Shown here: one piece after another, positions 5,049-5,876 of the stretch
Numbering within the stretch: position 1 is the first letter of the stretch
How the letters are laid out: the number at the start of each line of letters is the position of its first letter
From: Gammaproteobacteria bacterium
GTDB lineage: Bacteria > Pseudomonadota > Gammaproteobacteria > JAJFJF01
Assembly (NCBI GenBank): GCA_021774255.1
Contig: JAJFJF010000010.1
Span: forward strand, 3,947 to 67,946
DNA length: 64,000 bases
Direction of reading: 5' to 3'
The notes under the pieces: model-generated
The model's database searches: none
The model's input: only the letters and a program-made list of their open reading frames with translations
Told to the model about the DNA's origin: nothing
Program-made: the position numbers and the translations under genes

Positions 5049-5876
5049 CTATTTTTGGGAAGACGGTGGCTGAGCCGGGGGCAGAAAAGGCACTTCTGTT
5101 TGTAAAGAAAGAGGACAAATTCTTCCCTGCGGATCCCTCAAAAACCACAAGCTCTGCACGTTTGGTGAAGCAGAAGGGAGAGGCGGTAACTGAGGAAATA
5201 GGCCTGGTGGCAACGGAAATATGTCGCCAACACTGCCCCCGCGATAAACCGTATGTCCCGCACTTGCAGAGGGCTGATAATGCTGTTGCACCTGTCTCGA
5301 TGCGGCGGCTGTATTGTCTGGGTCCGCTGAAGCCTCGGCCTGCGCGGCAGCTCGCATCAGAGGCAAAGAAAAAGGCGCACTTGGCTGCGGCTGACCAGGA
5401 TAAGCCCAAGTACTCTGAGCTGGCGGCAAAGCAGGCAACAAGCTCAGTGCGTTAGCCGGTGGTGGCGCTGATGCTACGGTCACTGGAAGCATCTGCTGAT
5501 AAACTGCTCCCGGCTGACTGGCTGCACCTGCTGGCGCCCCCTGTTGATATGCCTCCTTAGCCGCCGCCACTTTTTTCTTCAGCTGCTGCATACCTTCTCT
5601 ATCGCCACCCAAACGCACCTCTTGAATTGTCGGGGCAGGCAATCGTGCTTTCCTCGCTTCTTTTAATAGTTTCATATACCGCAAACCACAGGCATTACAC
5701 AGCGAGGCAGGGCCCTGAGGGCCTCTTCGCCACTCAGGGGCTTCTCTTGTCATGCAGGCACCACAACAACGAGGCTTCAGGGTCTTCCGGGGACGGCGCC
5801 TGTAGCCCCTCTCTACTGCAATACCCTGCACTCCGGTCGCTTCTTGCATTGGAAAAATAAGTAAATTATCTGACAT
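5049..5876 (-). CDS. Eukaryotic-like protein with a GATA-type zinc finger, followed by a basic stretch and a long Pro/Ala/Gln-rich low-complexity tail
   Basis: CGAC-MTREAPEWRRGPQGPASL-CNACGLRYMK gives C-x2-C-x18-C-x2-C. It carries the hallmark GATA residues (T..P.WRR and LCNACGL-Y-K), then KLLKEARKAR. Confidence 0.7.
   Translation of the reverse strand: MSDNLLIFPMQEATGVQGIAVERGYRRRPRKTLKPRCCGACMTREAPEWRRGPQGPASLCNACGLRYMKLLKEARKARLPAPTIQEVRLGGDREGMQQLKKKVAAAKEAYQQGAPAGAASQPGAVYQQMLPVTVASAPPPANALSLLPALPPAQSTWAYPGQPQPSAPFSLPLMRAAAQAEASADPDNTAAASRQVQQHYQPSASAGHTVYRGGSVGDIFPLPPGLFPQLPPLPSASPNVQSLWFLRDPQGRICPLSLQTEVPFLPPAQPPSSQK

Follow-up and report, generated by a model that had tools for sequence, protein, structure and literature searches.

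How did a gene for a GATA-type zinc finger come to lie in a bacterial chromosome, and what would a bacterium keep it for? Such fingers are regarded as a hallmark of eukaryotes. The gene that raises the question encodes a protein of 275 amino acids on the minus strand, at positions 5049..5876 (stop codon included) of the 64-kb stretch of DNA that we analysed and refer to as the window. A first-pass annotation of this stretch had named frameshifts in the ORF as a ground for refutation, and we find neither a frameshift nor an internal stop in it; none of 20,000 shuffles stayed open over its length, so the ORF is not a chance product. The annotation had also described the finger as canonical, and this description holds: C38-G-A-C41 is followed by 18 residues (MTREAPEWRRGPQGPASL) and then by C60-N-A-C63-GLRYMKLLK. 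The Pfam GATA family PF00320 matches residues 38-69 (5670..5765, minus strand, with the four-cysteine core at 5688-5765) with E=6.8e-12 and a score of 45.2 bits, where the gathering threshold is 26.8, and the match covers profile positions 1-32 of 36. The zinc ligands C38, C41, C60 and C63 (C-x2-C-x18-C-x2-C) have the x17-20 spacing required of GATA fingers, and the pattern C-x2-C-x17/18-C-x2-C occurs just once in the six frames of the window, at this finger. Every column that is invariant among 10 eukaryotic fingers is present (P47, E48, W49, R50, R51, G52, P53, G55, L59, C60, N61, A62, C63, G64, L65, Y67 and K69). PDB chains of plant GATA18, AreA and GATA-1/2/3/4 match the finger at E=1e-9 to 1e-2, among them 8j48_D (plant GATA18, E=9.7e-10). 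An AlphaFold2 model from an 11-sequence alignment places strands at residues 50-52 and 55-59 and a helix at 67-78, at a pLDDT of only about 68-72. Foldseek run with the whole model returned noise only, because most of that model is disordered.

Could the gene be a contaminant, or eukaryotic DNA that was misassembled with bacterial sequence? Contamination can put GATA fingers into bacterial assemblies, as a narrow two-peptide scan of 185,579 GTDB species representatives illustrates: its only return was a 447-bp contaminant contig, a fungal-type fragment in a Streptomyces assembly. The gene studied here sits instead in an islet of 2.2 kb with bacterial genes on both sides, all within one 144-kb contig: rpe, for ribulose-phosphate 3-epimerase, on one flank (4211..4921, minus strand; TIGR01163, E=9.6e-96), and dapF, for diaminopimelate epimerase, on the other (7147..7962, plus strand; TIGR00652, E=5.5e-83), followed by xerC (TIGR02224, E=2.7e-108). 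The gene has no introns, and no eukaryotic protein matches it outside about residues 20-80, both of which speak against stray eukaryotic sequence. The annotation had proposed that the junctions be checked for chimerism, and an independent Logan assembly of another sequencing run (SRR14597287; contig L002) reproduces both the junction between the GATA gene and rpe and the elements upstream of the gene, including 37 nt between the stop codon of the GATA gene and rpe (4911..4947, minus strand) that are 100% identical in the two assemblies and so mark a junction with the housekeeping gene that is conserved. Chimerism is thus very unlikely, the least probable of the explanations that we considered. 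The GATA gene truly belongs to the chromosome of a gammaproteobacterium that is deep-branching and unclassified. The closest relatives of the GyrB of this bacterium are 70-74% identical and come from many gammaproteobacterial orders; as no other sequence exceeds 74% identity, the bacterial lineage is novel. The gene was also said to be origin-proximal, and we agree, for dnaA lies at 41448-42980, the sign of the GC skew switches at about 43 kb, and the gene is about 38 kb from oriC. The accompanying description of a putative insertion as AT-rich fits the 790-bp spacer between the two islet genes (5877..6664; 36-43% GC) and does not fit the GATA ORF itself, at 55% GC.

A gene can be real and still be without function, and it is conceivable that eukaryotic coding DNA was picked up and has not yet decayed. 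In favour of such a passenger, the gene has atypical codon usage, with a CAI 2.1 SD below the mean of the window, a trait that fits a selected gene of eukaryotic descent as well; nor did we find a Shine-Dalgarno sequence or a consensus sigma-70 promoter for it, and a consensus scan for promoters and terminators returned nothing on its strand. A clear Shine-Dalgarno sequence is, however, likewise missing at many housekeeping genes in the window. Further evidence comes from L002, which carries a full-length homologue of 277 amino acids (P0141) in the same position upstream of rpe and with the same upstream repeat elements. The two proteins are 38% identical and align over residues 1-274 (E=1.6e-17); the identity, dN/dS and open-frame values given here are all pairwise comparisons between them. 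Conservation begins at M1 (MS[DE]..L[IV]FP.Q) and the sequence just upstream diverges, which supports the assigned start codon. Conservation along the protein is uneven. The N-terminal region (residues 1-36; 5769..5876, minus strand) is 49% identical, and the finger is 61% identical, with dN/dS of 0.44 at dS 0.69. The C-terminal two-thirds are only 32% identical, which would fit a passenger, but the finger and the N-terminus are selectively conserved, and so is the composition of the tail. The two genes differ at 46% of nucleotides and yet remain open at 275 and 277 codons, and none of 20,000 neutral simulations kept the frame open at that divergence; non-coding elements upstream of the gene are moreover 100% conserved. 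On this comparison of sequences, the gene has been kept open by selection across two diverged bacteria, and we regard a functionless passenger as improbable. Since the P0141 orthologue occupies the same locus, the gene has been inherited vertically. Positive selection, considered as the cause of the flanks being more conserved than the ORF, was rejected as unproven; with a saturated dS (1.6) and a dN/dS near 0.4, it is simpler to suppose that the flanks are constrained.

If the gene is bacterial by residence, the finger is probably eukaryotic by descent. A search of 1.84 billion representative proteins returned, besides P0141, 4043 matches that cover little besides the finger, all of them eukaryotic as far as they were named or inspected. 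The x18 spacing is found in 146 of the best 149 matches, and the closest fingers, at 68-71% identity, belong to Paramoeba, Ceratiomyxa, Gocevia and Pellita (Amoebozoa) and to Mucoromycota, which are early-diverging fungi. These results bear out the earlier suggestion that the finger had a eukaryotic source. We found no relative in plasmids, phages or IMG/VR, a metagenome scan with a 22-nt upstream motif gave 0 matches, and a metagenome scan with a protein pattern gave 78 loci, all of them finger-only, the best of which (L003) is a 599-aa eukaryotic gene. Another Logan protein, P0169, aligns with residues 19-184 and was considered as a second bacterial relative; it was rejected because it comes from eukaryotic contigs, on which genes are sparse and LETM1 is a neighbour. 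Across these searches the one orthologue, in a second diverged bacterium, is the sole bacterial relative of the finger module that we could detect, and a literature search found no paper on a bacterial GATA-finger protein of this kind. The module may extend a little beyond the finger itself. The N-terminal region includes a basic cluster, Y25-RRR-x-RK, and members of the closest eukaryotic GATA subfamily have such a cluster directly before the finger as well: YR[RK]R precedes it in Mycena, Syncephalastrum and the eukaryotic P0169. We infer that a eukaryote was the source of both the finger and the upstream YRRR extension, captured together; going by the closest fingers, the donor was an amoebozoan or a fungus of an early-diverging group, with the caveat that the finger is too short for a robust phylogeny.

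The rest of the protein hints at what the captured finger might be used for. It is followed by a basic tail, KLLKEARKAR, and then by a helix at residues 93-111 (5544..5669, minus strand, for the two together) that AlphaFold2 predicts with confidence (pLDDT 87-93); residues 73-112 hold 9 K+R versus 5 D+E. Beyond this, residues 113-275 (5052..5540, minus strand) make up the low-complexity region that the annotation had likened to a eukaryotic transactivation domain, and its composition is as had been described, with 19% Pro, 16% Ala, 10% Ser and 10% Gln and almost no charge. AlphaFold2 predicts this tail to be disordered (pLDDT mostly <50), and against P0141 it keeps small conserved islands near the C-terminus, VY.GG.V..F.LPP and G..C.L..E.P..AQPP..Q. 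We think it most likely, with a probability of roughly 55%, that this eukaryote-derived gene, kept by selection, encodes a secreted mimic of a host transcription factor, that is, a nucleomodulin. The protein would be exported into a eukaryotic host cell and would enter the host nucleus through its basic clusters (R26-R28, R30-K31 and K72-R78), where the finger would occupy (A/T)GATA(A/G) sites in host DNA. There it might compete with host GATA factors, or its low-complexity tail might recruit host co-regulators, a logic analogous to that of TAL effectors. A strict classical NLS (K-K/R-x-K/R) is absent from the 275-aa protein, which we counted against the nucleomodulin reading; a loose [KR][KR]x[KR] pattern occurs at residues 27 and 75. 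The fuller proposal, that the lineage captured the GATA module from a protist or fungal host and keeps it as an injected transcription factor acting on host GATA sites, we advance more tentatively, at somewhat less than even odds.

What do the neighbours of the gene say about a host? The other gene of the islet (6665..7051, minus strand) had been called a second zinc-finger gene. It is a real ORF of 128 amino acids with patterned cysteines, in three C-x4-C...C-x2-C units, but the sole family match, PF24906 at E=0.0024, falls below threshold. A search of 5.8 billion proteins gave this orphan no homologue at E<=0.1, and a single-sequence AlphaFold2 model of it (pLDDT 41.5) is uninformative. It ends in ...KKGCCVMQ, which resembles a CaaX prenylation box, and among 349 frames of at least 60 amino acids in the window it is the only one with a CaaX-like end directly before the stop codon. 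Because the orphan is about 16% Cys, such an ending could be a chance occurrence at the percent level. Elsewhere in the window are an RNI-type LRR protein, an ankyrin protein and a second LRR protein, and the latter two look Sec-exported, so they could be surface proteins. The N-terminus of the LRR protein, MGKTQS, resembles an N-myristoylation site and was considered as one, but we do not rely on it, as Lys3 and Pro7 are disfavoured in the PROSITE PS00008 pattern. A host-associated lifestyle is suggested only by these neighbouring eukaryote-like genes (the ankyrin and LRR genes and the CaaX-like orphan), which are of a kind typical of bacteria that live with hosts. The bacterium is not an obligate reduced symbiont, since it retains the biosynthetic genes proA, proB, proC, dapF and hemE. 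No T3SS, T4SS or T6SS genes and no recognised translocation signal were found in the window, where the only secretion-related gene is a PilT-like ATPase.

The region upstream of the gene may hold the elements that control its expression. A 53-nt non-coding block (5936..5988, minus strand) is 100% identical in L002, where alignment positions 73-125 are invariant, and contains the proximal copy (5936-5974, minus strand) of a 39-nt direct repeat. The distal copy (6038..6076, minus strand) is 92% identical to the proximal one, and its 3' end is also found at the very start of L002. A third, inverted copy of the core motif GTGTAACATC lies on the plus strand at 5910..5919, 34-43 nt upstream of the ATG, and GGATGTTACA of this copy is kept in L002. 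The exact motif GTGTAACATC occurs in the window at these three upstream sites only, and expression of the GATA gene in the bacterium is probably controlled through this strongly conserved triple element. The spacer holds no convincing gene or known RNA, and Rfam scans gave no match of note in 5877-6664. When compared with L002, an upstream block with a TATA sequence is strongly conserved, and so is an AATAAA downstream. One might read these as eukaryotic signals, in which case expression would start from DNA that the bacterium passes to a host, in the manner of T-DNA, but this idea has no positive support.

Conserved upstream elements of such elaboration are what one finds at tightly regulated or autoregulated genes, and they raise the question of whether the captured finger stays inside the bacterium, as a domesticated regulator that binds bacterial DNA. 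The gene is chromosomal, close to oriC, vertically inherited and under purifying selection, all of which an endogenous regulator would share, and that the window holds no identified secretion apparatus or signal also fits. Yet no GATA site is conserved in the upstream elements, and we rejected autoregulation by way of such sites, as the single WGATAR beside the start codon (5895) is not kept in L002. WGATAR occurs at 2.8 sites per kb in the window, which is too short and frequent a site to give specificity to a single monomeric finger in a bacterial genome. A disordered, uncharged Pro/Ala/Gln tail of 160 residues is typical of regulators in eukaryotes and not of those in bacteria, eukaryote-like genes are enriched around the locus, and, as one orthologue is the only family member that we found, this is not an expanding family of regulators. 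We consider an endogenous regulator unlikely, if the most credible of the alternatives to a secreted mimic.

If the protein does prove to be a secreted mimic, why would it matter? To our knowledge, the DNA-binding nucleomodulins described so far use bacterial inventions, such as TAL repeats and ankyrin or tandem-repeat proteins, and not the DNA-binding domain of a host transcription factor. That a bacterial gene has kept a canonical GATA finger complete across speciation makes for a directly testable case of transcription-factor mimicry, and because the motif to be targeted, WGATAR, can be predicted, the search for host targets could be quick. The affinity of the finger to amoebozoan and fungal sequences provides a lead to the host, and the two homologues, which evolve fast yet stay open, provide a natural experiment, if a small one, to tell which regions of the protein are important. 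The locus also shows that GATA matches in bacterial assemblies need not be contamination. Were the protein indeed an injected transcription factor, it would be the first effector of a bacterium to rely on the canonical DNA-binding domain of a eukaryotic transcription factor, and a second TAL-like route, independent and host-derived.

The closest structural parallels are the eukaryotic x18-class GATA factors, among them short fungal and amoebozoan proteins, fungal WC-2-like proteins and plant GATA18 (PDB 8j48). They have the same Pfam domain with C-x2-C-x18-C-x2-C, and share with the bacterial protein the core PEWRRGP.G...LCNACGL.Y.K, the upstream YR[RK]R and the downstream basic tail. Unlike theirs, the bacterial gene is intronless and lies between rpe and dapF, and its product has an N-terminus and a tail in common with one bacterial orthologue only. 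The closest parallels in proposed function are the TAL effectors of Xanthomonas and Ralstonia and the Bat proteins of Mycetohabitans, which are sequence-specific DNA-binding transcription factors in the host nucleus; a bacterial protein acting there as a DNA-binding transcription factor is the logic that we propose here. TAL effectors consist of arrays of 33-35-aa repeats invented in bacteria; their NLSs are defined, they have an acidic activation domain, and their secretion by a T3SS is proven. The GATA protein, in contrast, has a single captured eukaryotic zinc finger, and its secretion is proposed only; its sequence has no repeats, and thus no tandem 33-35-aa units with repeat-variable diresidues, so it is an analogue of TAL effectors in proposed function only. 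TAL effectors are cited in a nucleomodulin review (PMC7819608), together with DNA-binding nucleomodulins of intracellular bacteria, namely Anaplasma AnkA, Ehrlichia TRP32/47/120 and Coxiella Cbu1314. For these proteins, entry into the host nucleus and binding to DNA of the host, by which transcription is reprogrammed, have been either proposed or shown, and they are often disordered and of low complexity, like the GATA protein, but none of them uses a canonical eukaryotic transcription-factor DNA-binding domain. The term GATA is absent from that review and from the Legionella mimicry and genus-genome papers that we consulted. Legionella differs from the present bacterium in several respects: GyrB here is about 72% identical to that of Legionella and equally distant from several other orders, there are no Dot/Icm genes in the window, and those Legionella papers describe no GATA-domain effector. 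Host prenylation of CaaX-bearing Legionella effectors is documented, with CaaX boxes in AnkB and LseA (PMC7542358). The eukaryotic-like effectors of Legionella are likewise eukaryote-derived domains and motifs carried in a gammaproteobacterial chromosome, and the orphan ending in CVMQ and the ankyrin and LRR genes place the GATA gene in similar company.

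The minus-strand GATA ORF (5049..5876) is intact and encodes a 275 aa protein whose residues 38-69 match Pfam PF00320 (GATA) with E=6.8e-12 and 45.2 bits, far above the gathering score of 26.8, which bears out both the finger that the first-pass annotation had read there and its expectation of a significant Pfam match. The finger, YRRRPRKTLKPRC-C38GAC41-MTREAPEWRRGPQGPASL-C60NAC63-GLRYMKLLKEARKAR, follows a C-x2-C-x18-C-x2-C pattern that occurs only once across the six frames of the 64-kb window, and it holds every column that is invariant in ten eukaryotic fingers. Among solved structures the best match by sequence is plant GATA18 (8j48; E=9.7e-10), and the fingers of AreA and GATA-1/2/3/4 are also matched by sequence alone. 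Each sequence criterion tested places the domain in the GATA zinc-finger family, and the protein carries a complete eukaryote-type finger with flanking basic regions. An AlphaFold2 model, built from an 11-sequence alignment only, places the strands and helix of the finger as expected with moderate confidence (pLDDT about 70), adds a confident helix at residues 93-111, and predicts the rest to be disordered. Residues 113-275 comprise 19% Pro, 16% Ala, 10% Ser and 10% Gln, with a charge of nearly nil, in keeping with the Pro/Ala/Gln-rich low-complexity tail described earlier.

The flanks of the gene are beyond doubt bacterial, with yifB, tRNA-Arg, dsbA, a dihaem cytochrome c gene and rpe on one side, dapF, xerC, rsmE and hemE on the other, and gyrB, recF, dnaA, yidC, mnmE and mnmG farther along. 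Near 43 kb (~43000-44000), between dnaA (41448-42980) and yidC (43945-45651), the sign of the GC skew switches, which likely marks oriC; the GATA gene is then some 38 kb away, on the side with negative plus-strand skew. Across 5.8 billion proteins no other sequence exceeds 74% identity to GyrB, which stands equally far from those of Kangiellaceae, Microbulbifer, Oceanospirillum, Legionella and others, so the source gammaproteobacterium is deep-branching; in this window it retains ordinary biosynthetic genes.

When 1.84 billion representative proteins were scanned exhaustively with HMMER, 4043 matched the GATA protein, nearly all of them in the finger only, and a single one aligned over its full length: P0141 (277 aa, 38% identity, residues 1-274 vs 1-276), encoded on L002, a 1202-bp contig that Logan assembled independently from run SRR14597287. 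L002 is syntenic with the window at both ends of the gene: downstream lie the same intergenic sequence and the start of rpe, including 37 nt of 100% identity, and upstream lie the same elements, among them a 53-nt block that is 100% identical, the first bases of L002 being the tail of the distal repeat copy. One might suspect the gene to be a chimera or contamination, but junctions common to two independent assemblies of two diverged organisms leave almost no room for such an artefact, which we regard as hardly credible. The longest annotated rpe ORF begins at an ATG at 4921, in a frame that stops early in L002 (ATG CTA AGT TAG); the true start is probably GTG 4873, with AAGAGGAAG just before it (region 4871-4921), and the TIGR01163 match starts at residue 21 of the long ORF.

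The flanks of the two genomes are about 76% identical, and the two GATA ORFs only 54% at the nucleotide level, with synonymous change saturated over the whole ORF (dS about 1.6). Protein identity is 49% in the N-terminus, 61% in the finger (dS 0.69, dN/dS 0.44) and 32% in the remainder. Because both ORFs are open and of near-equal length, the frame stayed open in 0/20,000 trials of neutral divergence simulated to the same identity, and the tails share a common composition (Ala, Pro, Gly/Ser, Gln) and, towards the C-terminus, small islands of sequence, we conclude that the gene is maintained by selection; it has been vertically inherited since before the two lineages split. The open frame in both genomes led us to reject a decaying passenger, and its conservation likewise makes it very unlikely that the gene is a neutral one. 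Before the ATG, a 39-nt direct repeat occurs twice (5936-5974 and 6038-6076, 92% identical) and its core GTGTAACATC a third time, inverted (5910-5919), the exact core being confined within the window to these three sites. Both repeat copies are conserved in L002 together with their copy-specific differences (window 5910-6076; L002 1-165), and the fully identical 53-nt block (5936-5988) adjoins an ORF saturated with change. By this comparison the repeats and the 53-nt block are constrained elements, and probably binding sites for a bacterial regulator. Scans found no consensus sigma-70 promoter or terminator for the gene and no Rfam family for the upstream elements.

Apart from P0141, the HMMER matches are eukaryote-type fingers, and a word-based search with the GATA protein returned eukaryotes only, the amoebozoan Ceratiomyxa at the top, followed by Sordariomycete fungi. 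The x18 spacing recurs in 146 of the 149 top proteins of the exhaustive scan, placing the finger in the plant, fungal and protist class as opposed to the x17 class of animals. The ten closest fingers are 68-71% identical over 34 residues, and six of them carry source names, namely the Amoebozoa Paramoeba, Ceratiomyxa, Gocevia and Pellita and two Mucoromycota. Likeness extends beyond the Pfam domain to a basic YR[RK]R motif about 10 residues before the first Cys, common to short fungal GATA proteins and one eukaryotic GATA protein. No relative was found among plasmids (72,556), phage records (50,697) or IMG/VR, and JGI and ENA metagenomes gave finger-only matches throughout; the best of those inspected proved to be a eukaryotic gene of 599 aa. 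Scanned with just two signature peptides, 185,579 species representatives of bacteria and archaea gave a single match, a 447-bp contig of Streptomyces actuosus VRA1 (NZ_JAFFZS010000213.1), which we rejected as a bacterial GATA gene: it codes for the C-terminus of a GATA protein of typical fungal type before passing into AT-rich sequence, and is therefore almost certainly fungal contamination. The codon adaptation of the GATA gene lies 2.1 SD under the mean of the window's genes, and this, with the eukaryote-type matches, upholds the proposed horizontal acquisition; the accompanying idea of an AT-rich insertion holds for the 790-bp spacer (5877-6664, 36-43% GC) and fails for the gene itself (55% GC). 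The only reading we find reasonable is that the finger module was acquired from a eukaryote, and the gene is both authentic and eukaryotic in origin. As to the donor clade, the domain is so short that its likeness to Amoebozoa or early-diverging fungi gives no more than a lead.

What might such a protein do? We propose, with a probability of roughly 55%, that the bacterium exports it to a eukaryotic host, where it enters the nucleus, binds (A/T)GATA(A/G) (WGATAR) and interferes with host GATA control. After leaving the bacterium, the protein would be carried into the host nucleus by its basic clusters, and the finger would occupy WGATAR sites, where it could compete with host GATA factors or, alternatively, recruit host co-regulators via the helix and the Pro/Ala/Gln-rich tail. 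It might instead be an internal bacterial regulator, but the disordered tail is eukaryote-like, a single GATA site carries low information in a bacterial genome (WGATAR occurs 2.8 times per kb of the window), and the scans brought up no further bacterial family members, so we consider this role unlikely. We favour the effector hypothesis as plausible.

Several other genes of the window are also eukaryote-like. Between the GATA gene and dapF, on the same strand, a Cys-rich orphan (6665-7051, minus, 128 aa) has three C-x4-C...C-x2-C units; a search of 5.8 billion proteins gave it no homologue at E<=0.1, and its sole family match is a sub-threshold WRKY19-type finger. Its last residues, KKGCCVMQ*, form a CaaX-like prenylation box with basic residues and an additional Cys in front, an ending found in only 1 of 349 window frames of >=60 aa; in Legionella effectors, CaaX boxes receive lipids from host enzymes (PMC7542358). 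The usual dnaA-dnaN-recF-gyrB cluster is broken by genes for an RNI/FBXL-type LRR protein (35096-36184, minus, 362 aa; PF24758, E=1.4e-11; between recF and gyrB), an adjoining AAA_14/DUF4143 ATPase (36508-37746) and a nearby GNAT protein (37846-38655). No gene in the window is more atypical in codon usage than the LRR gene (CAI 0.614, 3.2 SD under the mean), and the N-terminus of its product, MGKTQS, loosely resembles an N-myristoylation site. An ankyrin-repeat gene (54323-55237, minus; Ank_2, E=3e-17) and a second LRR gene (56568-57674, plus; LRR_4/LRR_8, E=7.7e-36; 41% GC), both encoding signal-peptide-like N-termini, enlarge the eukaryote-like content near the origin, and its density is what one sees in bacteria that associate with eukaryotic cells or live inside them. 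Against this, the 64-kb window contains no secretion system. Two more insertions, probably likewise acquired horizontally, are low-GC genes: a DUF234 gene (25315-26031, plus, 37.5%) and a DUF6088/AbiEi-like gene (47471-48100, minus, 39%), the latter next to oriC with mnmE on one side and an MFS transporter on the other. Three large ORFs have no Pfam or NCBIfam match (15413-17494, minus, 693 aa; 27725-29227, plus, 500 aa; 29209-31377, plus, 722 aa), the latter two apparently forming an operon with the FadL-type outer-membrane gene ahead of them.

The literature searched described no GATA-finger bacterial effector, and the word 'GATA' is absent from a nucleomodulin review (PMC7819608), a Legionella mimicry review and a Legionella genus-genome preprint. 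The likeness to TAL effectors lies in the proposed function only, as it does for the DNA-binding nucleomodulins AnkA, TRPs and Cbu1314 (PMC7819608); the GATA protein has no repeats and therefore falls outside these families. If the hypothesised effector role holds, it would be a new addition to the known eukaryote-like effectors and nucleomodulins.
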